A DNA stretch of 64,000 nt from Terrimicrobiaceae bacterium (GCA_044342325.1 JBIIPZ010000003.1:36930-100929), one strand, 5' to 3'; shown: positions 10,204 to 41,009, counted from the stretch's first letter. The notes: generated by a model not told the origin, from the sequence alone. Numbers and translations: made by a program.

Positions 10204-10252
10204 ATTACTCCGGTTGCCGGGTCTGGGTCCGACTGCTGACCTACTGCGCTCA

Positions 10253-24700: not shown

Positions 24701-27700
24701 CCCGACTTGACCTGCCTGAAACCCAAATGCTCCCAAAGGACTCGGCTCCGCTCCACATCCAAGGAAACCACCGCCTCTCTCTCGAAGGAACAGTCCTCTC
24801 CCCCAGCGTTGTCGGAGGTCGAGGCGCGCGCGTGGACATAGGGAGTGATGCTAATATATATATCATTGGTGGAGAAGGAACAGCTCCGGGAGGAATCTCC
24901 GCCATTCTCTCAACGCCGATCCTGAACTCCTGGAAAGCGGACAGCCTATTCATTGGCGGTCTCCGTGAAAAATCCTCCACTGGAACGACTGCCAGCATCC
25001 GGACCAATTCGATCACTGTTGCCAATGCCGGGGATACTCTCGAGGCACCAGAAATCACCTTGGCATCAAAGTCCAGCATCACCCTCTATGCCGGTTCCTC
25101 TCTCGCAAGCTCCGCACCTCCTTCGACTTCAGCTGAAAACATAGCCATCGCGGGCGATGGAAGTCTCCTGCGGGTTTCAGGGGATTCCTCCGCCTCCATC
25201 ACTCGCACAGGCGCAACCTCCTCCTCGGCACCATCACTTTCCATCGGGGCCAATGCCCGCATTACAGGAAAAGGAGTGATATTGGATTCGACGAACGCCT
25301 CGATTATTGCCCCATCGTTGAACCTGGCAGCCTCGGCCCTTACTCTCGGAAGCGGTCAAATCAGCGTTCTTTTCGAGCCACAGCCCACCGGATTGGCGGG
25401 TTCTGTAGTAAACAATCATCTAACTCTTCAAGGCGATTTCCTGAGAAACGCCTTTGCCTCGAATGCACTCACGCTACAAAGCTACCGCACGATCGACGTG
25501 TATGGCTCCGCAGCGTCCACTCATCAACTAAACTCGCTCAAACTGCTCTCTTCCGGTGTCCGTGGCTACACATCCGCAGGCACAAACATCCAACTCAACG
25601 CATCGGATGTCCTCTTCTCCAATCCGAACAGCGCTGCTGGACTTGCCAATCCCAGCACCAACACGGGGCTCCTTGCCATCACAGCACAGAACATCCGCTT
25701 CGGGGAGAACGGATTTGCAATCGCCGGATTCAACTCTCTTGATCTGGCATCAACCAACGGTGCCAAAGCCGACTCCAAGGGGTCGTTCTCGACAACAGGA
25801 AGTCTTTCGCTCTCCACTCCGCTTCTGACAGCCTCCCAAGGTATATCCTACAGCCTCACGGCATCTTCTGCGTTATCGATGCTCGCATCAGGCCATTCCT
25901 CAACCATCACTCCGGGTCTTGGAGCAACGCTAAATCTCGCAGGTTCCTCGGTGAGTTTAGCGTCAAATATAGCTCTACCAAGCGGCTCACTCATTGCAAC
26001 CGCCTCATCGGGAGACATCATTGTTTCAGGAACCCTGATGGCAGAGGGAACTGCGAAAAATTTTTATGATGTGACCCGATTTACCGATGCAGGAGCCATC
26101 GAGTTGAACGCCAAGGCCGGTAAAGTGACACTCGCCAACGGCAGTCGTGTTTCGGTCGCCGCTTCTTCCGCAGGCGGCAACGCAGGTTCGCTGACTATCA
26201 AATCTCCGAGCGGAATTTTTGTGAATGATGGGCTCATCTCCGGTGCCGCAGGTCTCGCCGGACTCGCTGGCACATTCTCACTCGATGCAGGAACAATCGC
26301 CTCATTTGCCGATCTTTCAACCGATCTTGCCTCATCCGGCTTCAGCCGCGAACAAAACCTGCGAGTGCGCAATGGCGATATAGCAATTGATCAAAATCTG
26401 ACCGTTCAGAAATTCACCCTTTCCACAGATAATGGCGGAATTGTTGTGAATGCTCGCATTGACGCATCAGGTCAGACTGGTGGTCGGATCGAACTCATTG
26501 CGCGGAACAATCTAACCCTTTCGCCAACTGGAAGCCTGACCGTGGCGGCCCAGCGCTTCAGCAATGCCGGAAAAGGTGGCCACATCCACCTGGAGGCAGG
26601 CTCGGCGGTCAATGGATCTCCAAACACCGCCGCCCTCCTCGATCTCCAATCTGGTTCTAACATCAACCTCTCAGTCTCCGAGTTCGTCGCGGGCGATTAC
26701 CTCACCGCCGGGTCCAGCGCCTTCAGCGGCAAATTCCAAGGAACCCTCCACCTCCGCGCTCCACGAAGCGGCAACGATGTCCGCATCGACCGGATAGACT
26801 CCACCATCACCGGAGCCTCAGCCATCTCGGTGGAACCATTCCGAGTCTACGAACCGGCTGGCGGCACCATGAACATTGTCTTGAGGAATACTATCAACAC
26901 AGACAACACCTCGTTCATGAACGCTGGCGAAGCTGCGATGCTTGCCCGTCTTCTCCCCAGTGGGAGCACATTGGGAAGCGCTCTAGCCATCACTCCAGGT
27001 GTTGAAATCCTCAACCGCACCGGCGACCTCACTCTAGGCCTGGCCAACAACTCAAACGCAGGAAGCACCAATGTGGAAGCCCTCTCGGGAGCGGACTGGG
27101 ATCTTTCCTCCTTCCGTTATGGAACCCGCCAAGCCCCTGGTGTCCTGACTCTCAGAGCAAAGAACGATTTGGTTTTCAACAACACCCTCAGCGACGGGTT
27201 CACACCCATCGCGCAAGGATCAGCCGCGAATTTCGCGGACATTGGTCATTCCCAAATGTGGCTTGCCACACCCCAATCCATCAACACCCTGCTCCCAATA
27301 AACCTTCAGTCCTGGCGCTACCGCTTCGCTGCGGGCTCGGATTTGGCATCCACAGCCCACCGCCGCACAGTGTCTGCGGACACCCTGGCCGCCGGCAAGG
27401 GATCAATTCTCGTAGGAGAATTTTATTCCACTGTTCCAAACACCGCCACCTCGGGAGCCAACGCCGCGATCGGCAAGGACGGCCAGACGGCTGATTCTAT
27501 TCGGATATCCAGCACAACATCAGATCGCGGCACGCGTTATGAAGTCGTTCGCACCGGCACTGGAGATATTGACATCGCCGCTGCCAAAGATGTCCAGCTT
27601 CGCAACGCTTTCGCCACCATCTACACTTCCGGCGTCGCCTTGCCCGATCCCACACGGATTTTCAAAACAGGCGATTTTTCCCTGCCGATTGTAGTGCGTG

Positions 27701-30588
27701 CCAGCCGACACCCCGATCAAGGCAATCTCGGCGCGATTCAACAAGCCACCAATCCCTCTTATACCATGGCAGGCGGCCTCGTTGCCATCTCCGCAGGCAA
27801 TGACATCGGCCGCTTCACTCGGATCAGCGGACAAACTGTAGCCGACGCCAGTCGTCAGATCCCCACAAACTGGCTCTACCGCCGCGGACAGGTGGACTCC
27901 GCAACGGGGCTTTTCGTTGAAGGCGGCGTCGGAAATCCCGGAAGCCTTGGTTCGTTCACAGACCAGTCGGCCTCCACCACGTGGTGGGTTGATTTCAGCA
28001 ATTACTTCGGCGGCTTTGGAGCTTTAGGTGGAGGAGGCGTTACGCTTGCCGCAGGCAGGGACTTGATAAATGCCGATGCCTCCGTGCCAACGAACGCCCG
28101 CATGGCCGGCTTGGACAACAACCAACGGATTGCTCCGTCACTGGAAAAACTCCAGCAACTCGGTGGCGGCGATCTTTCCATTACTGCCGGGCGCAACATC
28201 GACGGTGGTTCGTTCCTCGTCGACCGGGGAGGCGCATTGCTCGTAGCTGGGGCTGAAGTCACGACGAATTCCGCCCAATCCCCCTCGCGCGGCAATATGG
28301 GAACCTCCGGCCAATCTTCCTTGGTTTACGACGAACTTGTCTGGCAACCCGTCACCCTCTTCGGATCGGACTCGACATTTACCATCAACGCCCGGGGAGA
28401 CATCTTGGTCGGCGCCGCCACAAATCCTTTTCTCATGCCTCAAGGTGTGAACAACAAATTCTGGTATAAAACCCAGTTCAATACGGTGAACCCAACTGCT
28501 GCCGTATCCGTCAATTCCTTTGGCGGAGCCATCACCCACCGCCTCGCAGTCACTCTTCCAGGCGACTCACTCGCCATTCCAGTCCTTGAGGCAGCCTATC
28601 GGCAAACCTCTGCAATTTCACCCCAGTCCGCAGGATACTTCCGCCCATGGTTGCGACTCTCCGAATTGAACACCAACATGTTCCGGACAGCGGCCACAGT
28701 GGCGCTGCCATCCCTCAAGTCGAATGCGTTCGGTGGGGATATCAATATCGTCGGACCACTCAACCTCTTCCCATCCCCTCAGGGCGGATTGGAACTCCTC
28801 TCCTCCGGGACCCTCAATGGTCTCAACCCTTCCGGCATCACTACCACGACAGTGGATGGGGCCAGCAAACAGGTCACCGCTTGGACCGCCACCAGCCTCA
28901 ACCTCTCCGACGCGAATCCCGCAGCACTCGCACGCTCCACGACTCCCTATTCGATCCAAGCCTCACTTGGTGTTCGCGATGCCCTGACCCTCCGCGACAC
29001 CACCTTGAACCCATTTGCGGATTTTGATGCTGCTTTCTCGGAGACCGGAGCATTCACGGGCGAGGCGGCAGCCATCGATATCAAGAGCGCTTTGCACAAT
29101 CCATCGCCTCTCCACTCAGGCAACCCGAACCCACTACGCCTCTATGCGACCGGCGGAGATCTTACCGGGGTGACCCTCTACTCGGCAAAAAAAGTCCAGA
29201 CGATGGCCATGCGCGATGTTACAGATATTGCTTTTTACTTGCAGCATACTGGATCGGAGGATGTCTCCATCGTCTCGGCCGGGCGGGATATCATACCGTT
29301 CAATGAAAACTCCAGCCGCCGTGCGACAGCTGGCGATCTGACACTGGGTAACCTCATTGTTGACGAGGCGATGGATACAGCGCTCGATGATTCCAACGGC
29401 ACTCCTGTGCAAACCAAAGCCCTTCCTGGCGACATCCAAATCGGTGGCAGGGGAGTTCTGGAGGTTCTTGCTGGGCGCAATGTGGATCTCGGCACCGGCC
29501 CCAACCTCGTTGATGGACGAGGCAAAGGCATCACAAGTATTGGGCGCTCCAGAAACCCGTTCCTGCCATTCGAGGGAGCCGAACTCGTCGTCCTCGCAGG
29601 AGTGGGTGGCACCTCAGGCGGTCCGGCGATCGGCTTGGCCAAGAGCATTTTGAATTTCTCTGCTCTCAAGGGCGGGACGCCCACCACAGAGTTCGCCGCT
29701 GTCACTGCCCTTAAGGGCCTGTTTGTGGAACTCGCCCGAATCGGCGAGTCTGCCTTGGAATCAAGCGACTACTCCGAAGGCTATGCCTTGGTAAATAAAC
29801 TCTTCGGATCCGCCGTATCCACCGGCGACCTCTTCACCCGCGCCCGCGATATCCGCACCGGCAACGGCGGAGCCATAACCATCGCCACACCTGGCGGCGG
29901 CGTCACCATGGCCTCGGACATCTTTGGCAATCCCCTTACCCCTCCGGGTATTGTGACGGAATACGGTGGTGCGGTTTCAATTCTGACAGACGGTGATGTA
30001 AACATCGGCCAGGCCCGTATCTTCACCCTGCGCGGTGGAGACCTCACCATTTGGTCCTCCAACGGCGACATTGCCGCAGGCAACGCCCCAAAAACTGTCG
30101 TCACCGCCCCTCCGACTCGTGTGTTGATCGACGCCACGAGTGCCGACATCCAAACCGACCTCGGCGGTCTTGCCACCGGTGGTGGTATCGGCGTTCTTGC
30201 AGCCGTTGAAGGCGTTGAAGAAGGGGCCGTCAACCTCATCGCCCCTGGCGGAACGGTGGATGCGGGCGATGCAGGCATCCGCGCCACAGGCGACATCAAA
30301 ATCGCTGCCGCCGCTGTAGTAAATGCTGACAACATCTCCGCAGGAGGGACTTCAGCAGGCGTTCCCTCCTCGCCCACCGTCGCCGCACCGAACATCGGCG
30401 GCCTGACTTCCGGTTCATCGTCATCCGCCGCAGCGAGCAGTGCCGCCAGCCAAGTCAGCCAACAATCCAAACCGGAAGAGAAACCTGTCGAGGAAACCCC
30501 GTCTCTCATAACCGTCGAGGTCCTCGGCTACGGCGGCGGTGACAGCTCATCCGAAAAAGAGGATGAGGAGACTTCGGCGGAGGGCTAA
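18796..30588 (+). CDS. Giant filamentous-haemagglutinin-family TpsA exoprotein (3930 aa) with DUF3739-like C-terminus
   Basis: TPS domain (QALLHWRTFNVG, YIINQNGIVFGAGSQVN), G/S/T-rich beta-helix repeats, C-terminal LTIWSSNGDIAAG..KT..APP..GTVDAGDAGIR, terminal ITVEVLGYG. Confidence 0.92.
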   Translation: MLKTGHRTKYHLRAFEFLAARRRSRAVLTCTLLASFLATMPTAGLQAGDILRGGASGGNAKRNSEARANAGAAAAEAAKVRAQDRLARTTKAVNDMRALQASARAAAAANTIPNGLIEGGLNPIVGGTWTGANPATASGNNVNIKQTAAQALLHWRTFNVGSQTTLNFDQSAGGADSGKWIAFNKVFDPDAKPSQIRGKINAQGQVYIINQNGIVFGAGSQVNARTLVASALPINDNLVANGLLNNRNAEFLFSKDFANDPTATFGDIVVERGALLSSPEGEGGNGGRIMLLGANVRNAGEISTPSGQSILAAGLQVGVAAHAESDPSLRGLDVWVGDVGSYGGTVANSGLVESQRGSIVAVGKQITQSGALESSTSVNLNGRIDLLASYGAVGFPGYDSSFQPPFLNRSTGIVEFSSGSTTRILPDFSSNKKIPGTKLAQSSQVNIEGLGIHFAGGSSLIATAGAVGIRAGIWPFVDTNNDGIVTNATEASQQISNGRQRFLLSGGQVNIASSALLDASGTMDAFVPLANNFLAVQLRGSELADSPLQRSGGLRGKPLLVDLRRSGSYGGRGWIGTPLGDLTGFANITERDIAQLTTHGGSISISAGDSVSAATGATIDVSGGYFTHEGGAVRTSRLLRDANIVDMHNATPDVEYDGVYDGLSTFGSSKWGATETYTHPLAPLGGGNERSHVEGAAAGTLSITAPKMALAAELLGQSITGPRQQLLPAAQGTLQIKFQGETKFSTGGSNFVFLNQSPASPNVVFTNNSPSAAPFDFKVVDGTPTEMPFSAGATFAVSSDWWEEEEGGFGNIEIENTEGDITVPSSNPLALPAGGSLKIAGRNISVNSNVSAPGGSILMTAYNYTPMAYARAAAEGLFQNVAAPAAIAGQGTVRVAKGVYLDVAGQFADERPSSINPYQNKVLLSGGTVSLTGYSVLLEPGSLVDASGGVRGRPSGKFQYGNGGSISILAGKDPSLSTTTGGKLQLDGTLQAYSVAKGGSLSLQANTVQIGGTSAPEGTFFLQPDFFRKGGFTNYSVQGIGARATDGSYVPGVKVVSGTVIEPVAEQWRHLPMADAKKLSNAIARLGDQESAQTASILAEAGSYSDLSSLGFRRMGMDALFPVLLPEGLRQPASLTLSASGYDDAFTEDRVEALGIVDFQEEAKILTDAGATVRMSGDFVRVAGEISAPGGTIEITGRSSFRLPQTTVASFALPTVHLTPSAKLSVAGKTVQLDDPYTWNAGIIHPGGTIKISGNILAESGSLLDASGTSAVLDFHPSRLDPELVGKAPANSGLNSAPWQRQAVAVRVDSDGGRIELSGSQFLYADSTLLAKAGGETAVGGTLSVSSGRFYASGESRTGADTNLFLAASGQASRIASTSTLSNISSGLLASSTPDAYLASTLLSATTGSQGVGFFAMDRFISGGFDFLDLGFKYFKDASPIPYGGNLEFLESVSINAKGAVRLAGGGVIRSTFPVSVSAPYVAIGQEFLAPLNPADPYQPFREFNAGTGGTPSYNFAPSLGDGSLTVSAKLIDIGTLVTRGISNTKFTSEGDIRGNGIVSVAGKLSFQAAQMYPTTGSRFDVFAYDSGATKGSISVTSTSTPSLPLSAGGRLRMFADSIQIAGNLRAPMGSIVLGWDGTASSKPENIVVGSTATLSATSSLSLAKGASISVSGVDPTTGTEILVPYGISPDGLTWIDPRGVDITVSGLPDRGVSLAGNSVAMDSSATIDLRGGGDLLAYRWIPGIGGSADPLGTATRSWSSGSEYNAGDLVSHSGKTWSARRDIDPTDFTSSPTPSESVYWSLVPESYAVLPGTALNFSPFNPFNSGVNSGSLSGDPGFVSSSLRVGEQVELPASSGLAAGSHTLLPRRYAILPGAFLVVPQSGSLTNTSAVRSTRSPGALKSAPSNTQAVEMAEGSRFVSGRTLNGLTSTTETSPVLSRFEVVPPTVIADRVQFDTYKANEFLAAAAARLDLPETQMLPKDSAPLHIQGNHRLSLEGTVLSPSVVGGRGARVDIGSDANIYIIGGEGTAPGGISAILSTPILNSWKADSLFIGGLREKSSTGTTASIRTNSITVANAGDTLEAPEITLASKSSITLYAGSSLASSAPPSTSAENIAIAGDGSLLRVSGDSSASITRTGATSSSAPSLSIGANARITGKGVILDSTNASIIAPSLNLAASALTLGSGQISVLFEPQPTGLAGSVVNNHLTLQGDFLRNAFASNALTLQSYRTIDVYGSAASTHQLNSLKLLSSGVRGYTSAGTNIQLNASDVLFSNPNSAAGLANPSTNTGLLAITAQNIRFGENGFAIAGFNSLDLASTNGAKADSKGSFSTTGSLSLSTPLLTASQGISYSLTASSALSMLASGHSSTITPGLGATLNLAGSSVSLASNIALPSGSLIATASSGDIIVSGTLMAEGTAKNFYDVTRFTDAGAIELNAKAGKVTLANGSRVSVAASSAGGNAGSLTIKSPSGIFVNDGLISGAAGLAGLAGTFSLDAGTIASFADLSTDLASSGFSREQNLRVRNGDIAIDQNLTVQKFTLSTDNGGIVVNARIDASGQTGGRIELIARNNLTLSPTGSLTVAAQRFSNAGKGGHIHLEAGSAVNGSPNTAALLDLQSGSNINLSVSEFVAGDYLTAGSSAFSGKFQGTLHLRAPRSGNDVRIDRIDSTITGASAISVEPFRVYEPAGGTMNIVLRNTINTDNTSFMNAGEAAMLARLLPSGSTLGSALAITPGVEILNRTGDLTLGLANNSNAGSTNVEALSGADWDLSSFRYGTRQAPGVLTLRAKNDLVFNNTLSDGFTPIAQGSAANFADIGHSQMWLATPQSINTLLPINLQSWRYRFAAGSDLASTAHRRTVSADTLAAGKGSILVGEFYSTVPNTATSGANAAIGKDGQTADSIRISSTTSDRGTRYEVVRTGTGDIDIAAAKDVQLRNAFATIYTSGVALPDPTRIFKTGDFSLPIVVRASRHPDQGNLGAIQQATNPSYTMAGGLVAISAGNDIGRFTRISGQTVADASRQIPTNWLYRRGQVDSATGLFVEGGVGNPGSLGSFTDQSASTTWWVDFSNYFGGFGALGGGGVTLAAGRDLINADASVPTNARMAGLDNNQRIAPSLEKLQQLGGGDLSITAGRNIDGGSFLVDRGGALLVAGAEVTTNSAQSPSRGNMGTSGQSSLVYDELVWQPVTLFGSDSTFTINARGDILVGAATNPFLMPQGVNNKFWYKTQFNTVNPTAAVSVNSFGGAITHRLAVTLPGDSLAIPVLEAAYRQTSAISPQSAGYFRPWLRLSELNTNMFRTAATVALPSLKSNAFGGDINIVGPLNLFPSPQGGLELLSSGTLNGLNPSGITTTTVDGASKQVTAWTATSLNLSDANPAALARSTTPYSIQASLGVRDALTLRDTTLNPFADFDAAFSETGAFTGEAAAIDIKSALHNPSPLHSGNPNPLRLYATGGDLTGVTLYSAKKVQTMAMRDVTDIAFYLQHTGSEDVSIVSAGRDIIPFNENSSRRATAGDLTLGNLIVDEAMDTALDDSNGTPVQTKALPGDIQIGGRGVLEVLAGRNVDLGTGPNLVDGRGKGITSIGRSRNPFLPFEGAELVVLAGVGGTSGGPAIGLAKSILNFSALKGGTPTTEFAAVTALKGLFVELARIGESALESSDYSEGYALVNKLFGSAVSTGDLFTRARDIRTGNGGAITIATPGGGVTMASDIFGNPLTPPGIVTEYGGAVSILTDGDVNIGQARIFTLRGGDLTIWSSNGDIAAGNAPKTVVTAPPTRVLIDATSADIQTDLGGLATGGGIGVLAAVEGVEEGAVNLIAPGGTVDAGDAGIRATGDIKIAAAAVVNADNISAGGTSAGVPSSPTVAAPNIGGLTSGSSSSAAASSAASQVSQQSKPEEKPVEETPSLITVEVLGYGGGDSSSEKEDEETSAEG

Positions 30589-32790
30589 GTGGATAAATCT
30601 CCTCGCTGGATTTCGTTTTCCCTTCTTGCCTGCTTGGTGGTTGTCCTAGCCACAATCGCTCTCGACAGCGCAGCCCGTCTTGGCAGCGTCGAGAAAATCT
30701 CCGCGGTCACTTTTTCGGAAACCCCGCCGAATTCGCAACCACTACCTCCCGGATGCCGTCAGGAAACCATTCTTCTGCCCCAGGCCTCGGTGGATGGCCG
30801 TTGGTGGGTGATCCACACGCGAGAGATGCTCCGCGAAGGAGCTTGGAGGGTTCGCCACAGCGATTTGGACAACGCGCCTGCGGGCCGCGAAGTTCACTGG
30901 AGTTCTTTCCTCATGTGGGTTCTGTCGGGCTTGGCATGGCTTCGCTCATGGGGCACCGGCGAGCCTATCCATCACTTCGTTGCGGATGCCGCGCTGGCAG
31001 CCGGCCCCTTTTTGATGGTCGCGCTTCTGAGCGGATTGGCTCTCATAGCCTCTCGCGCTTGGGGATGGTCGACCGCTCTCTTTTACCTCTTGGTTCTGCT
31101 AACAACCCGCGCCGTGATGCGCACCTTTTTCCTTGGCGAGGCCGATCACCACGGGATCGTGCTGGCCTTTGCATCGGCGTGTCCGCTGGCCCTCCTTGCG
31201 GGGGGATGTGGTTTTTTCAAAACACAAAAATCCAAGCGGGAAAAACGGCCTGAGAAATCAAGCCTGCACTGTTGGGTTGTCGTCTCCGGCATCGCTGGCG
31301 CGGTGGCCTTGTGGGTGAGCGCCTCCACCACCCTGCCGATCCTTGCGGGCACCGGGTTGGGAATCCTCGCCTGCGTCCTGCTGCTCAAACCCGAACCCGG
31401 CTCGCGGCAAGAGCCGGGAATTTGGTTACTCTGGGGTCTCTCGGGATGTCTGGCGAGTCTAGCATTTTACCTTTTGGAATATTTCCCAAGCCACATGGGG
31501 TGGCGGCTGGAGGTGAACCATCCCCTCTACGCACTCGCATGGCTCGGCGGCGGTTGGATTCTCGACCAAGTTGTAGCTTGGCGCTCGACGGGACGATTTC
31601 CCGTCAGAGGATTCGGCGGTTCCCTTCGCTTGATTCTCGCTTTGGTGGTTTGCACCGCCCCGCTGGCCGCCATCCTATTCGCAGGAGACCGCGTCTTTTG
31701 GGTTTCGGACAAATTTCTTCTCTCCCTTCACAAGGAATACATCCTCGAGTTCCAGAGCCTTTTTGGTCTCTACGGGAAAGAAAAACAGTCTCTGTGGATT
31801 CCGCTTTTCTACCACTTCTGGATTTTTGCCATTGCCGCCGGGATCACCTTTTTGGGAATCCGTCGATCCATCGACTGGAGGCTTCGTTGCGATCTGTGCC
31901 TTCTGGCTCCGCCAGTTTTCGTGATGCAGGTGCTCGCCATCTGGCAAGTGCGCTGGGGATCCGCCGCTGCGGCGCTTTGGGCACTCGTGGCACTTGCCGT
32001 CTTCGCCGCATTCCTGCGCTTGCCAATAGGCAATTCCACACGCACTTTCGGGGTCATGGGAGCCTTGGCCTCCATTGCGGTCGCATTTTTCAGCGCCACG
32101 CTCCCGACCGCTGTCGCCAGCTACCACGAGGAGACCATCGCCCTGAACTCGCCCATGGCGGAGTCGATCGGAGGCAATCTCCTCCTGCGTGATGTGGCCC
32201 GCCGCATTTCGGAGTCGTCGCCGGGCGCCGTGCCAACCGTCTTAAGCGGCCCGAATTCCTCGACCGAGCTTTCCTACCAAGCCGGACTCAAAACACTCGG
32301 CACCCTCTACTGGGAAAACATGCCGGGGCTCAAGGCCGCCGCCCGCATTTTTGCCGTTCCTGACGGTGACGAAGCCCTACGGTTGCTCACCGCCTCCGGA
32401 GTCACACACATCGTTGTGCCTTCTTGGGACAACTTCGCCGCTGCCTACGACGATCTTTTGGCGAAAACCGAGGGACGCCCCGGCGGCATGGCGTTTTTCA
32501 AATCCATTCTGGAAAACGAGGAATATCCGACATGGCTTCGCCCATTTGCCTACCCCATCCCCAGCGGCTCGGGCATCGATTCCCAATCGGTGAGAATCTT
32601 CGCCGTTCTCCCTTCGCAAAACGCCTTCGAGTCTTGGTTCTACAGAGGCGTCTATCATTTCGAGTCCGGTCAGCCGGAAAAAGCGAAGCGGGCCTTCGAG
32701 CAAGCGGCACTCCTTCGCCCCGCCGATGCACGCGTGAAAAGCTACCTTGAGAATCTCCCAACCTCTCCTTCAAACTCCACACAGCCATGA
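30589..32790 (+). CDS. Polytopic membrane protein, AglB/PglB/STT3-like GT-C glycosyltransferase (divergent)
   Basis: About 13 hydrophobic segments; SVDGRWW, NAPAGREVHW, LGEADHH, YILEFQSL, AARIF...EAL.LL..GVTHIVV; C-terminal TPR. GTG start abuts the tpsA stop. Confidence 0.65.
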   Translation: MDKSPRWISFSLLACLVVVLATIALDSAARLGSVEKISAVTFSETPPNSQPLPPGCRQETILLPQASVDGRWWVIHTREMLREGAWRVRHSDLDNAPAGREVHWSSFLMWVLSGLAWLRSWGTGEPIHHFVADAALAAGPFLMVALLSGLALIASRAWGWSTALFYLLVLLTTRAVMRTFFLGEADHHGIVLAFASACPLALLAGGCGFFKTQKSKREKRPEKSSLHCWVVVSGIAGAVALWVSASTTLPILAGTGLGILACVLLLKPEPGSRQEPGIWLLWGLSGCLASLAFYLLEYFPSHMGWRLEVNHPLYALAWLGGGWILDQVVAWRSTGRFPVRGFGGSLRLILALVVCTAPLAAILFAGDRVFWVSDKFLLSLHKEYILEFQSLFGLYGKEKQSLWIPLFYHFWIFAIAAGITFLGIRRSIDWRLRCDLCLLAPPVFVMQVLAIWQVRWGSAAAALWALVALAVFAAFLRLPIGNSTRTFGVMGALASIAVAFFSATLPTAVASYHEETIALNSPMAESIGGNLLLRDVARRISESSPGAVPTVLSGPNSSTELSYQAGLKTLGTLYWENMPGLKAAARIFAVPDGDEALRLLTASGVTHIVVPSWDNFAAAYDDLLAKTEGRPGGMAFFKSILENEEYPTWLRPFAYPIPSGSGIDSQSVRIFAVLPSQNAFESWFYRGVYHFESGQPEKAKRAFEQAALLRPADARVKSYLENLPTSPSNSTQP

Positions 32791-33719
32791 AAACCACACA
32801 CCTCCTCGCCTCGATCCTGCTCCTTGGCCAACTACATGCCGCCGACCCGACACCGGCGGTTTCCGAATTGGATGCCGCCGCATCCTCGGGAAACGCCACC
32901 GCACAATTTCAACTCGGCCGCGCTTATTTTCGCGGTGACGGCGTCACCGCCGACAAAGCCAAGGCCCACGAATGGATTTTGAAATCCGCCGAACAAGGCA
33001 ACCCCGATGCCATCACCAGCATGGGGTATTTTTATTCCCAGGGAGTCGTCCTTGAAAAAGACGAAGCCAAGGCCATCGAGTGGTTCCGCAAAGGTGCCGA
33101 GGCCGGATCCCCCAAGGCCCAAATGAACCTTGGTCTCATGCTCCGCCAATCCAAGACGCTCGACCGCAACCATGATGAAAGCATGGAATGGCTGGAGAAA
33201 GCCGCCGCCACCGGCGACCCCGATGCCGTCCGCACCCTCGGCCAACTCTACTTTCTTGGTGATTCCCTCCTGATGCCGGCGCCGGCCAAATCGATTCCCT
33301 ATCTCACAAAAGCCGCCGAAGCGGGCGACCCCGCCTCCATGAACATGCTCGGTGTGGCCTACCGCGAAGGCCACACAGGAAGCATCGACAAGGAACAAGC
33401 CAAGGAATGGTTTCGGAAAGCCGCCCAACTTGGTGAAGTCAAGGCCCAGTCGAACCTCGGTCATATCCTCGGAGTGGAATCGCCCACAAGCCCAGACCGC
33501 AAGGAGGCGCTCAAGTGGCTACTCATAGCCAAAGAACAGGGCGAAGCCACATCCACCAAAACCTACAAGGAACTTCTCCATACATTTCCGCCAGTCCTTC
33601 TCGCCGCTGCCCAAAAGGAAGCCAACAAATTCCTCCTCTTCGCCCGAGCCAAATCCTCCAAGCCAACCGCTTCCCCAGAAGAAAAACAGCCCGCGAATGA
33701 CGCGAATCCTCGCGAATAG
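32787..33719 (+). CDS. Exported Sel1-repeat protein
   Basis: Repeated AQFQLG.Y..G.GV..D..KA.EW..KAAE.G units; ATGA overlap with the upstream gene. Confidence 0.9.
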   Translation: MKTTHLLASILLLGQLHAADPTPAVSELDAAASSGNATAQFQLGRAYFRGDGVTADKAKAHEWILKSAEQGNPDAITSMGYFYSQGVVLEKDEAKAIEWFRKGAEAGSPKAQMNLGLMLRQSKTLDRNHDESMEWLEKAAATGDPDAVRTLGQLYFLGDSLLMPAPAKSIPYLTKAAEAGDPASMNMLGVAYREGHTGSIDKEQAKEWFRKAAQLGEVKAQSNLGHILGVESPTSPDRKEALKWLLIAKEQGEATSTKTYKELLHTFPPVLLAAAQKEANKFLLFARAKSSKPTASPEEKQPANDANPRE

Positions 33720-33745
33720 AATGGCGATCCGATTCAAGCGGAATC

Positions 33746-33783
33746 TTGACAGATAAGCTCGAAGACATATGTTGTGACATATG
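33746..33783 (+). promoter_or_regulatory. Promoter/operator of vapBC, probably leaderless
   Basis: TTGACA-16 bp-TATGTT-7 nt-ATG; GACATATG direct repeats at 33764 and 33776. Confidence 0.75.
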
Positions 33784-34020
33784 AAAGCCGTAACCATTCA
33801 TTTGGATGAATCTGTTTATTCTGAATTTCAAACGTTAGCCAGAAAATCCAAGCGAACTGCCTCGGAGTTGATCCGTGAGGCAATGGATTTGTATCGGCAA
33901 AAAGTCAAAAAAAACACCCACTCCCTTATTGATTCGCCCCCGGCTGCCTCCGTGGGAAGCGTTCTTCAACCCTGGTCCGACCGCTCCGAGATGATTGACA
34001 ACTTTTTTAACCGCGAATGA
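33781..34020 (+). CDS. CopG/ribbon-helix-helix antitoxin (VapB-like)
   Basis: MKAVTIHLDESVY...KRTASELIREAM RHH pattern; ATGA overlap with the PIN gene. Confidence 0.82.
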   Translation: MKAVTIHLDESVYSEFQTLARKSKRTASELIREAMDLYRQKVKKNTHSLIDSPPAASVGSVLQPWSDRSEMIDNFFNRE

Positions 34021-34460
34021 TCGGTCTCGATACCACAGTCTTGATCGCCCATGAACTCACTGAAGCTCCCCTGCATCGGCAGGTGAGGAATCACATTGCC
34101 TTGCTCTGCCGCGAAAGGGGCACCCGCTTAGGATTGGCTCCCCAAGTGCTTCAAGAGTTCATACATGTGTCCACAGATCCTCGCCGTTTCCAGCAGCCTC
34201 TGACGATGGAACAGGCCTTGTCGCGCGCCAACTTCTGGTGGGATGCTTCCGAGGTGGTTCATTGCCACATCACCGACAAGGCTTGGCATCATGCCATGAG
34301 CTGGATGGAAAAGTATTCCTTGGGGCGAAAACGCATTCTGGATACCACATTGGCTGCCACCTACCACGATTGCGGCATCCAATTATTGGCTACTGCAAAT
34401 CCCGCCGATTTCGCAGTTTTTGGTGTTTTTCAATTTGAATCTTGGGCCCGAGCTTGTTGA
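34017..34460 (+). CDS. PIN-domain toxin (VapC family)
   Basis: LDTTVLI, QVLQEF, ILDTTLAAT, TANPADF acidic PIN residues. Confidence 0.88.
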   Translation: MIGLDTTVLIAHELTEAPLHRQVRNHIALLCRERGTRLGLAPQVLQEFIHVSTDPRRFQQPLTMEQALSRANFWWDASEVVHCHITDKAWHHAMSWMEKYSLGRKRILDTTLAATYHDCGIQLLATANPADFAVFGVFQFESWARAC

Positions 34461-34790
34461 CACGCTTAAGCCCGAAGCCAGCAGAATTAACCACAACCGG
34501 AAAGGTGGGACCCTTGGAGGAAGAGCAACCAAACGTTGGCCCCGAAGGGGTGAGACGAGCGGGAGCGAGCGAATCAAAGGACACAGAGGATGAATTAAAG
34601 TGAATCCCATTGGGTAGTTTTGTGCGGTTCGCCACTTTCGGAAACCGCTCCTGTTAATATTGTAACTCCTGTGCTCTTGTCTAAAAATCTGTTTTCGGAG
34701 TCGATGGCAACTCGATTTGCCTCTCACCGAGTCACAAAGTCACAAAGATAGACTTACCACTCCTCCGTGCTCTCCGTGGTAAAATTTTAG

Positions 34791-35501
34791 TCAAGGGGCC
34801 TTGGGATTGGCGCGCTTTTCCTTCAGCGCCTCCTTGGCGGCTTTGATATGATATTGATTGTAAGCTTGATATCCGAAAAGGGTCATATAGCGCTCGTCGG
34901 CGATTAACCTCGCCGCATCCCAAACCTCTTCTTGGGTCATCCCTTCGGGAATTTCACTTACATTTTGCTCAAACTCGCTGGCAATACGATCCAAGGCCTT
35001 CATTTGCTGAGGAGGCTTGGGCGCGTCGTCCTGAAAAAGGGCCGGCACCTTCGCCCCTGCGGGAACCGGAATGGTTATTTCGCGAATCGGTCCACCAGCC
35101 CCCCCCCCACCGACAAATGGCCCGTCATCCACCCCATAGACGGCGGTGGGAATTTGTGTCGCCTCGCTGCCCGAAGCCCCGTCGCTCTTTGAGCTACCAC
35201 CCGAAGCCCCACCAGCCACTCCGGGAGTCGTTGCCAATCGCGGCGGCGGCATCGGCTGGAGTGGAGCAGCCATCGACCCTGTGCCAGAGATGGTTGCCAT
35301 CACAGCCGGGGACGCCTTCCCCTCCGTCTTGTTAGCCCGCTCAACCGAGGGCCGTGGCGTTGTAGCTCCTGTGGCTCCTAGCTTCGTCTCCCGAACCGGT
35401 CGATCCACCACCGCCTCCGACTGCACTGTCGGCATCGAGAGCAAAGCCCATCCACCCGCCCCCGCGATGACAATAAGACTAAAGAGAATAATAAGTTTCA
35501 T
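34791..35501 (-). CDS. Hypothetical protein with N-terminal membrane anchor/signal
   Basis: 236-aa ORF, hydrophobic N-terminus, low-complexity linker, helical C-terminal domain (WDAARLIADERY..FGYQAYNQY). Confidence 0.65.
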   Translation of the reverse strand: MKLIILFSLIVIAGAGGWALLSMPTVQSEAVVDRPVRETKLGATGATTPRPSVERANKTEGKASPAVMATISGTGSMAAPLQPMPPPRLATTPGVAGGASGGSSKSDGASGSEATQIPTAVYGVDDGPFVGGGGAGGPIREITIPVPAGAKVPALFQDDAPKPPQQMKALDRIASEFEQNVSEIPEGMTQEEVWDAARLIADERYMTLFGYQAYNQYHIKAAKEALKEKRANPKAP

Positions 35502-35560
35502 AGGGTATCTGGAAAATTCATACTGTATTGGCTCACTATAGAGGCAGGAAAATGAATTGT

Positions 35561-35624
35561 TGTAGCGGCGGTCTATGACCGACGAATTCGTTTCGCCCCT
35601 CGGCGGTCATAGACCGCCGCTACA
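35561..35624. repeat. REP/REPIN-like inverted doublet
   Basis: TGTAGCGGCGGTCTATGACCG...CGGTCATAGACCGCCGCTACA: 21-bp perfect arms starting with GTAG, each arm internally palindromic. Confidence 0.8.
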
Positions 35625-35746
35625 GTGCCCCCTGGAACCAACGCTTTCTCCTTCCATTCAGTAAATTAAGATATTTCAGTCAAAACCTCCTGTCTCTCTT
35701 GCCAATCTTGTCCTCCTGTCAAAATTCCCTGCTCTGCTAAAATGAA

Positions 35747-35776
35747 GGAAGCCGACACCTTGCGGTGTCGGCTTCC
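35747..35776 (-). terminator. Rho-independent terminator after the PstS-like gene
   Basis: GGAAGCCGACACC-GCAA-GGTGTCGGCTTCC hairpin followed by TTCATTTT on the minus strand, 18 nt after the stop. Confidence 0.75.
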
Positions 35777-35794
35777 AGCAGGTTGAGGGTTCGA

Positions 35795-37153
35795 TTAGAG
35801 CGGAGCCACGATGGGGAAACCATCATCCGGACGGGTCACAGTCACATCGCCGAGGCGCACGCCATTGGCTGTGATCTGAAGACCAGAAGGAAGATAGGTG
35901 TTCTTCATGGAGTCATACCAAGCTTGCTCGTTGGCACTCAATGATCCGTGGTAGTAGAGATGCTGATAGCTCCATGCGGAGTAGGCACCCGTGGCGATTT
36001 TCTTGAAATCAGCCTCATTGAATCCACTGCTCTGGTAGCTTCCTGCCGCAGCGATCGGAGTGACTTTTACACCATTGTAGCCAAGAATTTTGGCGCCGGC
36101 GGTTGCTGCATTGAGGCAGTCTGCGGTGGAGAGCCAAGTCAGTAGAACAATGTCTTGATTTTCCATATCGGGAGCCTCATCCACACCATTGTAGATAGTC
36201 ACATTCGAGGATGTGTAACCCATGAGTGTGCGGAGCGCCGAGGAACTGCTGTAGCCACCATTGCCGACATTTGTGTTGCCCCAAAGCGTGGAGGCATCGC
36301 TGGTGCGATTGGTTGAGAATGCTCCGGAACCAATGCCGTTGGCAGGAACAAGGGTGAGCTTGCTGATGCTGCCATTTCCACTGGAGCTGGTGCCACCATT
36401 CACAGCCGTGTATTGATTCACAAGGTTCGCCACACCAAAAGTCCACTCCGTAAGATAGGCAGACCGCGTTCCGGATCCGTCGTTACGACCAGTTGCCAGC
36501 ACATATTTGGTATCCGCAGGATCGCCAGTGAATAGCGAAAGGGGCTGGATACCATTGGTCCAAAGTTGGCGGCATTGCTGAATTGTCACATTTTCCAAAT
36601 TCGAAGGAGCACCTTCGTTGGCGATCATGGCGAAGGTCACGATGCCGACTGCGGATGCACCGACTGGATTCAGAACCTCATTATCCACGGGTGAAGTGGA
36701 TTGATAAACATCCGAGAAGCTGAACTTCGGACGGAGCGTCTCAGTTGGCGAGGTCGTAAGATCCTTGATCCCAGCCGTAAAGTTGCCAGACGTCAGCGCC
36801 GCTTGGGTTAGGAATGTCGGATTGTTGTTGCCAGCAATAGCGTTAAGCCCCTCGGTTGATCCGTTGAAAGAAGTGCGGATCACCGTGGTTCCCGTGATGC
36901 CAGGGAAACTGCCGCTGAAGATGGCCCGGTTGGAGGCGATCAACTGGCTGATGTTCGCCCCGTTGAAATCGTGGGCGACATTGAATGTTGTTCCGGCGGC
37001 ACCTGCTGAAGCATAGGCATCATAGATGGCACGCATGGTGGCTTGGCGGAACGCTGTGGCGCCCGTGATGGTGATTTCGGTGGTCGTCTGGGCCGAAGCC
37101 GACGCCGCTAGCCCGGCAAAAAGAGTGCCGGCAAGGATGTTTTTGATTTTCAT
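35795..37153 (-). CDS. Exported PstS/DING-like phosphate-binding-fold protein
   Basis: Signal peptide; ITGATAF, GSTEG, FSFSD, GRNDGSGTR, GYNGV, IATGAYSAWSY occur in the order of PstS-family motifs. Confidence 0.7.
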   Translation of the reverse strand: MKIKNILAGTLFAGLAASASAQTTTEITITGATAFRQATMRAIYDAYASAGAAGTTFNVAHDFNGANISQLIASNRAIFSGSFPGITGTTVIRTSFNGSTEGLNAIAGNNNPTFLTQAALTSGNFTAGIKDLTTSPTETLRPKFSFSDVYQSTSPVDNEVLNPVGASAVGIVTFAMIANEGAPSNLENVTIQQCRQLWTNGIQPLSLFTGDPADTKYVLATGRNDGSGTRSAYLTEWTFGVANLVNQYTAVNGGTSSSGNGSISKLTLVPANGIGSGAFSTNRTSDASTLWGNTNVGNGGYSSSSALRTLMGYTSSNVTIYNGVDEAPDMENQDIVLLTWLSTADCLNAATAGAKILGYNGVKVTPIAAAGSYQSSGFNEADFKKIATGAYSAWSYQHLYYHGSLSANEQAWYDSMKNTYLPSGLQITANGVRLGDVTVTRPDDGFPIVAPL

Positions 37154-37204: not shown

Positions 37205-39784
37205 TTACTTCTTGGCTTTCTTTTTGCCTCCGGCTTTTTTTCCCGAAGATTTTTTGGCGTCGGACTTCTTAGCGCCCGAGGACTTCTTGGCACTCGAGGA
37301 CTTGCCCTTCTTTTGAACTTGTCCAGAGCTGCTACCTCCACCACCGCCTCCAGATGGGGCTCCTCCGCCTCCGCCGGTAGATGGAGATCCGCCGCCGCCG
37401 CCGCTCACTGTGACTGACACATTGCCGGTCACACTGTTGTAATTTGCACTATCCGTTGGCGTGAAAGTAAACGAATGTTGTGCAGTGCCAACTGGGGGCA
37501 CTGTGCTTGGCGTCGTGAAGGCAAAGGTGCCAGCAACGCTCCCGACACCACCACTCAATGTCGAACTCGCAAGAGTCTGGCCAGAAGTGATTGCGCTTGC
37601 TGTAGGTTGCGTCGTGATCGTTGGAGTTGCCTTACTTATGGTGATCGTTAGCGTTCCATTTCCTGTGCCTCCGGCATTGGTGGCACTGATCGCTACGGCA
37701 GATATCCCTTCGCTTGTTGGCGTGCCGCTGATCACACCAGTTGCGCTATTGATGGTGAGTCCAAGAGGAAGGCCTGTTGCCGCATACAATGTCGGGCTGT
37801 TGCTTGCTGTGATCGTGTAGGGTGTGAAAACTGTCCCTACCGTGCCACTTATCGACTCGCTGGTGACCACCGGAACGGCAACCGATTCTCGAACATCAAG
37901 GGTCAGTGTTTTCGAGTCACTTCCCCCTGCGTTTGTGGCTGTCAGAGTGACACTGAAGTTTCCAGCCGTTGTTGGCGTGCCGCTGATCACACCGGTTGTG
38001 GAATTCAGCGTAAGGCCAGAGGGAAGAGTTTCGGCCTTGAATGATGTTGGCTTATTGGAAGCTGTAATCGGATAGCTAAAAGTGGCTCCTACATCACCGC
38101 TGGCTGTCGTTTCGCTGGTGATAAGTGGAGGCTGACCAACGGACGCAATCACTGAAACAAATCGGACAGATCCATCTGCCAAAAGCGTCAAAGTTCCCAA
38201 GAAGTCGGCTCGTGCACCATTGTTAGCTGGATAAGTTTTGCTTGAGTATGTTGCCGTTTTAAAATTTTCGGCGTGCCATGTTGTGTCCAAATCGGCATTC
38301 GCGCCTGTGGTCTTGGTCACCCGGTAGAGGTCCAGCATCGCAACCACATTTTCCACATCCGCGAAAGTTGTCGCTGTGGTAAGCGGGCCTTGGATGCCAC
38401 CGGCAACCGCCCCGTAAGCGGTAGAGGGATTGCCGTTGCTGAACGGGTTATTAATGGAAAGGGGGCCGCCAACCGCTACTGCACCGGGTTGAGTCATTCC
38501 AGCGATATTATTTGCTCCGGCGATGGTATTTGCCACAGCAGTTTGTGCGGGATCGAACAGCGGGGACGCGGAATTGGCCTCGCCTGCCGTGCCTACCGCC
38601 GCGCGAGGCTTGGTCACATACACCGTGCGGGCGTAGTCGCCGTTGGTGATTCCAGTCGAGAGCGCGCTGGTCGCGCCGTTCTGGCCAGCAGCACCAATGA
38701 AGATCGTGGAAGCTTTGTTTGTCCAGTCAGCACCAAATGTCGTTGTCAATTGGGTATTAATGTTTCCTAAATCCGTAATCGTTGATTCTGGCCCATCGCG
38801 GAATACATCCACCACGCTACCTAAGCTATAATAAACCACCTGGTCGGTTCCGATTGCTCCACCGGGATTTTGTAAAAACATAAGTAGATCATTTGGATCG
38901 TATGAGTCATCAGCTCCAGCGACAGGCTCGGCAGTAAATTGAGAGACAAAATTCAAGTCTCCAGTTGATGAAATCGTTATCGTTCCAAGATAGTCCGCTC
39001 GTGCACCGTTGTTTCCAGGGTATGAGTCGTTGAAATAAGTTGCTTTTTTGTAGTTGCTGATGTGCCAAAGATCGCTGCTGTAGGAATCCGGCGTCGTGGT
39101 TTTGGTAACGCGGTAGAGGTCCAACATGGCCACAACATTTTCCACATCCGCGAAAGTTGTCGCTGTTGCAAGCGGGCCCTGGATGCCCCCGGCAATTGCC
39201 CCGTAAGCGGTAGAGGGATTGCCGTTGCTGAACGGGTTATTAATTGAAAGGGGGCCACCAACTGCTACTGCACCGGGTTGAGTCATTCCAGCGATATTAT
39301 TTGCTCCGGCGATGGTATTTGCCACAGCAGTTTGTGCGGGATCGAACAGCGGGGACGCGGAATTGGCCTCGCCTGTCGTGCCTACCGCCGCGCGAGGCTT
39401 GGTTACATACACCGTGCGGGCGTAGTCGCCGTTGGTGATTCCAGTCGAGAGCGCGCTGGTCGCGCCGTTCTGGCCAGCAGCACCAGCGAAGATCGTGGCA
39501 GCCTTGTTTGTCCAGTCGGCACCAAATGTCGTTGTCAACTGGGCATTGAGATTGCCCAGTGGTGTTGCCGTCCCCTGAGGTGCATCGCGGAAGACATCCA
39601 CCGCGCTGCCAAGGCTGAAGTAGACCACTTGATCCGTCCCTAAGGTTCCCGCCGGGTTTTGGAGGAACAGGAGAACATCGTTGGCGGTGTAGGCATCGTC
39701 TTGTGCGGCGATGACTGAACTGGGCATTGCGAACGAAGCCGCAAGAAATGCGGTGCATCCGAGCTTGGATAGGATTGATTTCAT
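37205..39784 (-). CDS. Exported protein: tandem duplicated ~263-aa domain, two putative Ig (He_PIG) domains, Gly linker, Lys-rich tail
   Basis: Signal peptide; 789-bp DNA duplication; LP.GLT.NS.TGVISGTPT twice; tail KKGKSSSAKKSSGAKKSDAKKSSGKKAGGKKKAKK. Confidence 0.8.
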   Translation of the reverse strand: MKSILSKLGCTAFLAASFAMPSSVIAAQDDAYTANDVLLFLQNPAGTLGTDQVVYFSLGSAVDVFRDAPQGTATPLGNLNAQLTTTFGADWTNKAATIFAGAAGQNGATSALSTGITNGDYARTVYVTKPRAAVGTTGEANSASPLFDPAQTAVANTIAGANNIAGMTQPGAVAVGGPLSINNPFSNGNPSTAYGAIAGGIQGPLATATTFADVENVVAMLDLYRVTKTTTPDSYSSDLWHISNYKKATYFNDSYPGNNGARADYLGTITISSTGDLNFVSQFTAEPVAGADDSYDPNDLLMFLQNPGGAIGTDQVVYYSLGSVVDVFRDGPESTITDLGNINTQLTTTFGADWTNKASTIFIGAAGQNGATSALSTGITNGDYARTVYVTKPRAAVGTAGEANSASPLFDPAQTAVANTIAGANNIAGMTQPGAVAVGGPLSINNPFSNGNPSTAYGAVAGGIQGPLTTATTFADVENVVAMLDLYRVTKTTGANADLDTTWHAENFKTATYSSKTYPANNGARADFLGTLTLLADGSVRFVSVIASVGQPPLITSETTASGDVGATFSYPITASNKPTSFKAETLPSGLTLNSTTGVISGTPTTAGNFSVTLTATNAGGSDSKTLTLDVRESVAVPVVTSESISGTVGTVFTPYTITASNSPTLYAATGLPLGLTINSATGVISGTPTSEGISAVAISATNAGGTGNGTLTITISKATPTITTQPTASAITSGQTLASSTLSGGVGSVAGTFAFTTPSTVPPVGTAQHSFTFTPTDSANYNSVTGNVSVTVSGGGGGSPSTGGGGGAPSGGGGGGSSSGQVQKKGKSSSAKKSSGAKKSDAKKSSGKKAGGKKKAKK

Positions 39785-40974: not shown

Positions 40975-41009
40975 TTGCGCCAATCAAGGCAGTGTGTATC
41001 GTTCCCGCC
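40975..41009 (+). promoter_or_regulatory. Promoter of the Rpn gene, probably leaderless
   Basis: TTGCGC-16 bp-TATCGT-7 nt-ATG(41010). Confidence 0.65.

Follow-up and report, generated by a model that had tools for sequence, protein, structure and literature searches.

An STT3/AglB-like protein family without WWDYG, encoded directly behind TpsA in Chthoniobacterales: candidate periplasmic glycosyltransferases

To our knowledge, the known bacterial relatives of STT3 are PglB enzymes, all of which read the N-x-S/T sequon through a WWDYG motif, and the glycosyltransferases known from two-partner secretion (TPS) loci are cytoplasmic, like HMW1C. The DNA analysed here, a stretch of 64,000 nucleotides from a Terrimicrobiaceae bacterium (GCA_044342325.1, JBIIPZ010000003.1:36930-100929; hereafter the window), carries at 30589-32790 (+) a gene that touches on both themes. 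By open reading frame (ORF) calling and translation, it encodes a 733-aa STT3/AglB-like GT-C protein with a GTG start, which lacks WWDYG and follows directly on the gene for a TPS exoprotein, TpsA. We propose that this STT3-like protein is an active periplasmic GT-C enzyme of the STT3/AglB/PglB lineage that uses a lipid-linked donor and does not read N-x-S/T, with TpsA as its probable acceptor; we put the probability of this reading at roughly one half.

Among described structures, AglB is the best fold match (A. fulgidus AglB-L, PDB 7E9S/3WAK/5GMY; AglB-S C-terminal domains, 3VU0/3VGP), with 13 transmembrane (TM) segments and a C-terminal alpha/beta domain in both proteins. An AlphaFold2 model of the STT3-like protein, built from 32 homologues (pLDDT 86.9, pTM 0.88), gave 26 Foldseek matches in the PDB at E<=1e-3, the first 11 of which are all AglB or STT3 chains (E 1e-11 to 5e-8). 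Ranks 1-4 are held by A. fulgidus AglB (E 9.7e-12 to 4.8e-10; TM-score over the query, TMq, 0.55-0.58), led by 7e9s_A (E 9.7e-12, TMq 0.58), and ranks 5-11 by human and yeast STT3, with TMq reaching 0.59 for human STT3A. CeDPY19 (E 5.4e-8, TMq 0.53-0.58) and PglB (E 6.1e-8, TMq 0.45-0.46) come after the STT3 chains. The isolated C-terminal domain of AglB-S2 (3vu0_A) matches the model with a TM-score over the target (TMt) of 0.59, and identity in the alignments to AglB is 12-14%. As judged from the model, the protein combines a 13-TM GT-C core with an alpha/beta domain at the C terminus that is like that of AglB, in agreement with a preliminary description made from the sequence of the window, which had proposed a GT-C/STT3 fold. 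Much weaker matches to ArnT (E 1.2e-5, TMq 0.34) and AftA (5.9e-5), both within TMq 0.27-0.34, bring to mind a non-protein acceptor, namely an envelope glycan or lipid such as lipopolysaccharide core, lipid A or a polysaccharide, as for ArnT, Gtr-type GT-Cs and arabinosyltransferases. A DPM1-like GT2 paired with a GT-C, as encoded in the window (see below), also follows the logic of three-component glycan-modification systems (PMC11127046). We nevertheless consider such an acceptor quite improbable, as the matches to STT3, AglB, PglB and DPY19 are 3-6 orders of magnitude stronger (TM-score 0.45-0.59 versus 0.27-0.34), an AglB-type C-terminal domain and a tetratricopeptide repeat (TPR) are present, and no GtrA-like flippase ORF was found adjoining the GT2.

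Profile searches point in the same direction at lower strength. TIGR04154 (archaeo_STT3), the sole NCBIfam family matched, is hit weakly by the STT3-like protein (E 4.7e-7, aa 97-474 on model positions 62-434) and, again weakly, by 28 of 39 family members (best E 7.5e-11). The Pfam STT3 N-terminal model matches one of 32 relatives in one set and three of 61 in another, two of the latter above the gathering score; in one relative (P0177), the match covers the equivalents of D69 and D186/H188, residues discussed below. PMT_2 was matched by only one of the 61. In the protein atlas, the feature score to bacterial 'AglB core/STT3' clusters is 0.98. Against PDB chains, a search with the single protein gave TPR and chance matches only and profile A1 gave TPR proteins only, while for profile A2, from which the TPR is left out, two weak matches were all that came up, to the AglB C-terminal domains 3vu0_A (E 0.2) and 3vgp_A (E 0.53), and in both the alignment falls exactly on GLKAAARIF...GVTHIVV.

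The likeness to oligosaccharyltransferases (OSTs) extends to the candidate catalytic centre. In PMC7226087, D56 and E319 of PglB are described as holding both the metal and the amide of the acceptor, R147, D154 and D156 (R154, D161 and H163 in AglB) as completing the metal site, R375 (R404 in yeast) as binding the pyrophosphate, and WWD and MxxI/DK as binding the Ser/Thr at +2. In the STT3-like protein, D69, D186-x-H188, E387 and R455 resemble this metal and (pyro)phosphate site in order and spacing. The distances of 117 residues from D69 to D186 and 201 from D186 to E387 are close to those of AglB (114 for D47-D161, 199 for D161-E360) and match those of PglB more loosely (98 and 165; PMC7226087). 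Likewise, PglB of Campylobacter lari (3RCE/5OGL/6GXC) and eukaryotic STT3 share the GT-C fold and have the counterparts D56, D154/D156, E319 and R375 in the same order; unlike the window protein, they have WWD and MxxI/DK and a DxD/DxE rather than a DxH motif, and no pgl-type pathway for lipid-linked oligosaccharide (LLO) was seen in the neighbourhood of the STT3-like gene. Conservation was counted over 261 aligned homologues of at least 550 aa, four shorter ones of the 265 in total having been dropped. All five residues (D69, D186, H188, E387, R455) are retained together in 251 of the 261, as the preliminary description would have it in expecting conserved acidic and His residues.

Each of these residues lies in a well-kept motif. 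D69 (255/261), the candidate catalytic Asp, is part of SVDGRWW (aa 67-73; 30787-30807, +) in the first periplasmic loop (26-134), where it starts model helix 68-83. LGEADHH (aa 182-188; 31132-31152, +), at the periplasmic end of TM4, contains D186 (258), H187 (260) and H188 (259) and is of the D-x-H type, a feature shared with AglB (D161/H163). YILEFQS (31738-31758, +; I385 245, E387 260), with YILE at aa 384-387, lies in EL5 (367-405), the long loop that joins TM9 to TM10; by its position, E387 corresponds to the EL5 Glu of the TIxE/SVSE motif (PglB E319, AglB E360). QVRW (31945-31956, +) at the periplasmic TM11/TM12 turn holds R455 (261/261) and W456 (260/261), and R455, which sits 68 residues past E387 compared with 56 in PglB and is placed in its role by position only, is a candidate (pyro)phosphate-binding Arg. 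Four further conserved motifs have no OST counterpart known to us. The first loop (EL1) carries a D-N-A-P-x-G-R-E-V-H-W-S-S block (30868-30912, +; D94 257, R100 257, H103 250 and W104 256 of 261), where the P.G...HW string NAPAGREVHWSSFL stands at aa 95-108. The most conserved motif of all, LLEYFP...WRLEVNHP, is in the TM7-TM8 loop (31471-31524, +; E297 260, R306 255, E308 259, N310 258, H311 252); R534-D535 is among the invariant motifs (R534 257/261), and GTLYWEN in the periplasmic domain is near-invariant (32299-32319, +; T572 254, Y574 256, W575 258, E576 259, N577 260). Every motif string quoted in the preliminary description was found in the translation of 30589-32790, in the order given there.

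The count of about 13 TM segments, also made earlier from the sequence, is reached with 12 Kyte-Doolittle segments and the model helix 312-334. An N-in/C-out topology would give 21 Lys and Arg residues in seven short cytoplasmic loops versus 2 in four short periplasmic ones, in line with the positive-inside rule, and would place all of the conserved acidic, His and Arg residues, including D69, D186, H188, E387 and R455, on the periplasmic side. At its C terminus is a TPR (aa 681-712; 32629-32724, +; Pfam TPR_2, E 2.8e-6), the one feature that Pfam finds in the protein itself; TPR_2 is matched in 29 of 32 relatives.

What sets the family apart is the missing WWDYG motif. The absence noted in the preliminary description holds throughout: all 265 family proteins are free of a WWD string, and none of the 261 aligned has a Trp at the corresponding slot. 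We infer from order, spacing and the secondary structure of the model that GPNSS takes the position of WWDYG; it is part of VLSGPNSSTEL (aa 551-561; 32239-32271, +), a strand-turn-helix (model strand 550-552, helix 555-565) that lies 26 residues ahead of the AglB-aligned segment. Across the family, the slot reads [GS]-P-[NT]-[ST]-[ST]-T, with GPN in 111, GPT in 46, DPT in 16 and SPN in 15 of the 261 at aa 554-556. The segment downstream, AARIF...GVTHIVV (32338-32418, +), is a helix-strand unit common to the AglB C-terminal domain according to the A2 profile matches and Foldseek (3vu0_A); AARIF (584-588) and GVTHIVV (604-610), which had been put forward as the C-terminal segment expected of AglB or PglB, are present and align to the AglB C-terminal domains. 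Past the HIVVP strand, the sequence reads SWD[ND]F (SWDNF in the window, 32422-32436, +; SWDDFG in many relatives; W613 224, D614 148 and F616 234 of 261), to which no conserved DK Lys or MxxI Ile could be assigned. SWD[DN]FG (aa 612-617) was considered as a displaced WWDYG and rejected: the strand before it aligns to the AglB segment downstream of WWDYG, which places it at the DK/MI position, and no more than 148 of the 261 homologues retain its Asp. Loss of the substrate-recognition motif, along with a TPR and a Sel1 partner that suggest protein binding, could also mark a catalytically dead STT3 relic that helps TpsA export as a scaffold or chaperone in the periplasm or inner membrane. We regard this as highly improbable, since the retention of all five active-site residues in 251 of 261 homologues, with members down to ~30% identity, would be unexpected in a dead enzyme.

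PglL/PilO/TfpW, TMTC and PMT_2+TPR enzymes transfer from lipid carriers to Ser/Thr in low-complexity regions, in the periplasm or lumen and without an N-x-S/T sequon. Of these, the TMTC and PMT_2+TPR O-mannosyltransferases have a GT-C core followed by TPRs, an arrangement also seen in the STT3-like protein. The PglL fold is Wzy_C/O-antigen-ligase-like; unlike in PglL and PMT_2, the variable module and C-terminal domain of the STT3-like protein are STT3-type. The tryptophan C-mannosyltransferase DPY19 (7ZLH/7ZLG) likewise has 13 TM segments, long EL1 and EL5 loops, a luminal dome and no WWDYG, and it uses a polyprenyl-monophosphate-linked monosaccharide, as the GT2 near the STT3-like gene would suggest here. 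However, DPY19 (GT98) is described in PMC10154233 as metal-independent and without metal-coordinating residues, whereas the STT3-like family keeps the OST-like D/DxH/E set. Unlike AglB, in turn, the family has no WWDYG and no identified DK Lys, has invariant motifs of its own and a C-terminal TPR, is bacterial and is linked to a TPS operon.

HMW1C-type enzymes (GT41) have a GT-B fold and use nucleotide sugars. As third partners, HMW1C and EtpC are encoded in TPS loci beside their TpsA (PMC5422565; PMC2877744), and the same arrangement is found here; but whereas HMW1C-type enzymes are soluble and cytoplasmic (PMC5422565), the STT3-like protein is a 13-TM GT-C protein with its conserved residues on the periplasmic side. 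In the window, the tpsA stop TAA occupies 30586-30588 and the GTG start (30589-30591) begins on the very next base, as had been pointed out before. A GGAGG ribosome-binding site (30579-30583, +), as read from the sequence, lies within the end of tpsA, 5 nt ahead of the GTG. The start is supported by an 87%-identical homologue, which begins at the same residue with M. The two ORFs share one reading frame with a single stop between them. The same frame with one separating TAA is seen in the window and in three related loci (L001, L004, L005), while L008 has a 4-nt overlap instead. The junction fits termination-reinitiation coupling rather than conserved read-through.

This linkage is conserved. 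A genome scan gave 266 relatives, with 78 loci kept and flanks of at most 10 kb; according to their phmmer scores against the window protein, 41 loci (score of at least 390) were assigned to a closer group and the others to a distant one. In the 33 closer loci with at least 1 kb of upstream flank, a filamentous-haemagglutinin (FHA) gene lies directly upstream in 25 and anywhere in the locus in 31, and L022 and L023 were left out of the 'directly upstream' count solely because their called ORF starts are over-extended. Downstream, in the 24 closer loci with at least 3 kb of flank, the neighbours seen in the window recur as follows: a Sel1-repeat protein in 21, a PstS-fold protein (p452) in 22, a membrane-anchored protein (p236) in 18 and a He_PIG protein in 15. 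A maximum-likelihood tree of 76 rows places the FHA-linked copies in one Chthoniobacterales clade of 42 rows (SH-aLRT 97). FHA is found in 36 of these rows, and five of the other six have at most 273 nt upstream, too little to show it. Within the clade, the gene stands directly behind FHA across 36-93% identity, with junctions that abut or overlap by 4 nt. In Chthoniobacterales, the STT3-like gene is thus tightly and conservatively linked to TpsA, to Sel1 and to a block of PstS-fold, He_PIG and GT2 genes.

The identification of the upstream gene as TpsA stands. The 3930-aa filamentous-haemagglutinin-family protein (18796-30588, +), the candidate acceptor, has the TIGR01901 N-terminal domain (aa 154-232; 64.4 bits against a cutoff of 29.1) and a TpsB partner in the window, by which we place it among TPS TpsA proteins, and it carries DUF3739 at aa 3747-3857; Pfam Haemagg_act gave no match to it at E<=1e-3. 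It had been called an S/T-rich cargo, which is only partly so: overall S+T content is modest (19.5%), and the enrichment is clearer in a C-terminal linker of 57-61 aa found in 33 of 34 TpsA C-termini (median S+T 29%, A 24%, P 9%). The C terminus of the window protein (aa 3819-3930; 30250-30588) consists of a GTVDAGDAGIRATGDI block, the linker, PS.ITVEVLGYGGG and an acidic tail, and is conserved in 33 of 34. The motif SLITVEVLGYGGG (30502-30540, +) is likewise conserved in 33 of the 34, and the S/A/T/P-rich low-complexity part of the linker (aa 3856-3891; 30361-30468, +) may, by inference, be a glycosylation region. The candidate donor synthase is the GT2 (237 aa; 39970-40683, +; Pfam Glycos_transf_2, E 1.9e-33), which resembles polyprenyl-phosphate-sugar synthases, with NCBIfam matches to AglJ (4.4e-33), PpgS (2.1e-22) and ArnC (2.4e-15), all below cutoff. 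Of the earlier suggestion that this GT2 feeds the enzyme, the synthase type holds up, while the supply of donor is not established and the gene recurs in 7 of 24 loci.

In our proposal, the STT3-like protein would take a sugar or glycan from an undecaprenyl-phosphate or -pyrophosphate carrier, which may be charged by the DPM1/AglJ-like GT2, and would transfer it in the periplasm, through an N-, O- or other linkage, onto an unfolded protein segment, recognising the segment without a +2 Ser/Thr pocket. The transferase would be metal-dependent like OST and unlike DPY19, with the TPR, and perhaps Sel1 as well, keeping the substrate in place. The likeliest acceptor would be the co-translated TpsA, which would cross the periplasm unfolded, and its S/A/T-rich C-terminal linker of constant length could be one site. 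TpsA is the most economical acceptor because of this unfolded transit, the translational coupling and the conserved low-complexity S/A/T linker. As to the donor, we favour a monophosphate-linked monosaccharide because of the type of the GT2 and because no LLO genes were found; the invariant R455 would equally suit a pyrophosphate donor.

Several observations weigh against this proposal. Pfam STT3 (PF02516) gives no match to the STT3-like protein itself, its TIGR04154 score of 28.6 bits does not reach the curated family cutoff of 450, and at E<=10 the PDB-chain profile searches reached no full-length STT3, AglB or PglB. Its fold and catalytic motifs suggest that it works as AglB, STT3 and PglB do, yet we leave it outside the N-OST family (CAZy GT66) because WWDYG is lacking and the curated family scores are missed. 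The residue equivalences (D69 with D56/D47, and so on) we infer from order, spacing, topology and conservation, and it is synteny alone that makes TpsA the probable acceptor. The GT2, which adjoins He_PIG where it is present, occurs in just 7 of the 24 closer loci with at least 3 kb of downstream flank; no flippase or LLO assembly genes were found within the window, and N-x-S/T sites are not enriched in TpsA (29 versus ~38 expected). Some of these points bear on a second possibility, that the protein is still an Asn-directed OST, with an Asp/Glu pair activating the carboxamide and a pyrophosphate-linked glycan, whose sequon is altered or relaxed as the WWD/DK pocket is replaced. The near-invariance of D69 and E387 (compare D56/E319 of PglB) and R455 (compare R375), given the roles assigned in PMC7226087, would suit such an enzyme, as would AglB as the best fold match. 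We think it unlikely all the same: a first-loop acidic residue is also present in O- and C-linking GT-C enzymes (Glu71 of DPY19; PMC10154233) and is therefore no marker of Asn chemistry, LLO assembly genes were not found nearby, where the sole GT2 is of the monophosphate-sugar-synthase type, and TpsA shows no enrichment of the sequon.

Further points concern the tie to TpsA. One closer locus, L015, has a peptidyl-prolyl isomerase (PPIase) gene and then the STT3-like gene directly, without FHA, and the distant members, mostly from Opitutaceae, have unrelated and heterogeneous neighbours, some of them PMT_2+TPR proteins, with FHA in 3 of 29 loci. The enzyme might accordingly be a protein glycosyltransferase that is not dedicated to TpsA but serves more than one envelope protein, such as its PstS-fold and He_PIG neighbours, or forms a general system, the proximity to tpsA reflecting co-regulation only. 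The reach of the family far beyond FHA-linked loci, the retention of the gene in L015, a PstS-fold neighbour as constant as FHA (22 of 24 loci) and second paralogues in five loci all speak for this. Yet the Chthoniobacterales clade keeps the gene directly behind FHA over 36-93% identity, with stop and start that abut or overlap by 4 nt, and we hold a non-dedicated enzyme to be rather unlikely. The second, divergent paralogues are at L031:15627-18314, L032:12055-14112, L033:14741-16759, L063:16123-18096 and L072:7131-12436, and four of the five group with Opitutaceae-type copies, outside the FHA-linked clade.

Returning to the window, ten genes lie in a row on one strand (10214-33719, +), the STT3-like gene being the ninth, in the order TpsB, ExbB (with N-terminal DUF2341 and LamG), ExbD, TonB, Porin_5, coiled-coil, PPIase, TpsA, STT3-like and Sel1. 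The array is headed by a TpsB-like transporter (10214-11893, +; Pfam ShlB 7.1e-17, POTRA_2 7.1e-12) and ends with a secreted Sel1-repeat protein (32787-33719, +; Pfam Sel1, E 2.7e-45), whose start overlaps the stop of the STT3-like gene by 4 nt. Gaps in the array are at most 10 nt, except for 169 nt ahead of tpsA, and an ExbB/ExbD/TonB-type motor between tpsB and tpsA is unusual for a TPS operon. In nine related loci (L006, L007, L012, L013, L014, L015, L017, L025, L026; for example L012:12163-13602), a polytopic membrane ORF of ~480 aa separates the STT3-like gene from Sel1. This ORF, which the window lacks, shows an invariant W-[FL]-D-E past TM1 and the motifs HDNNHP and SEARGYAP, and gave only chance-level Pfam matches (DUF3305/LAB_N, one of seven at E<=1). 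That it might be a second GT-C was not supported (hhalign against A2, probability 4.5%).

Between the Sel1 gene and p236, at 33781-34460 (+), are a small ORF and a PIN-domain ORF, a VapBC-like pair with its own promoter-like site (33746-33773), which L002 also has but which L004 and L005 lack at this place. A promoter and terminator scan of 29500-35800 gave nothing informative. Beyond the pair lies a divergent block of p236, p452, He_PIG and GT2. Of these, p236 (34791-35501, -) is membrane-anchored and of no known family (no Pfam match), and the He_PIG gene (37205-39784, -; Pfam He_PIG, E 3.9e-20) encodes an Ig-domain surface protein. The label 'PstS-like' given earlier to 35795-37153 (-) is borne out by the fold: p452, a secreted protein of 452 aa, has no Pfam match, though its AlphaFold2 model (pLDDT 84.5) has PstS proteins as top Foldseek matches (4lat, E 1.2e-9, TMt 0.78). 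It has invariant TGATAFR and GRNDGSGTR loops. PdtA of P. aeruginosa is, we presume, a DUF3739-type TpsA. The PdtA/PdtB TPS system is regulated by phosphate starvation (PMC5422565), and the locus described here may be a phosphate-limitation surface system. Elsewhere in the window are two transposase-like genes (PDDEXK_2 and Transposase_31/YhgA-like), one directly after the GT2 at 40992-42005 (+) and one at 56641-57693 (-), and a second giant ORF of more than 1968 aa with 13 passenger-associated transport repeats (PATR), which runs off the window (58029-63998, -).

The STT3-like protein is not a solitary find. Among 8000 candidates scored, 716 homologues were found at E<=1e-3, and a library at 50% identity holds 1053 representative clusters at E<=1e-3, of which 549 reach E<=1e-30. 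With these numbers and near-invariant acidic and His residues in 261 proteins, the observation is not due to chance. The family is mostly from Verrucomicrobiota, and so are nearly all of the related loci (Chthoniobacterales/Terrimicrobiaceae, Opitutaceae and metagenome-assembled genomes (MAGs) labelled Akkermansia), plus one Usitatibacter and one Rokubacteria MAG. Source names for the family were 'hypothetical protein' and once 'TPR repeat protein' (16 named among 39 cluster members read), and no paper describing it was found in the limited literature collection searched. In the sources covered, this large family is thus neither named nor studied so far.

More tentatively, we suggest that an STT3-derived enzyme has swapped the WWDYG/DK pocket for a GP[NT][ST][ST]T / GTLYWEN / WRLEVNHP surface of its own and, in Chthoniobacterales, may have become dedicated to a TPS exoprotein, which it would modify from a lipid-linked donor while the exoprotein crosses the periplasm. 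This would be an unrecognised class of protein glycosyltransferase, an extension of our proposal that is possible but that we would not yet bet on. If true, type Vb secretion would for the first time be seen coupled to a periplasmic glycosylation step that draws on a lipid carrier, and the relatives, which make up over 1000 sequence clusters across Verrucomicrobiota, would act on other substrates. With candidate partners in one conserved locus, acceptor, donor and linkage are directly testable. Such enzymes could supply sequon-independent transferases for glyco-engineering. A large, conserved STT3-fold family with the catalytic centre but not the sequon pocket would throw light on the evolution of acceptor specificity within this lineage, and a phylum that has been little studied would gain a new way of glycosylating proteins.

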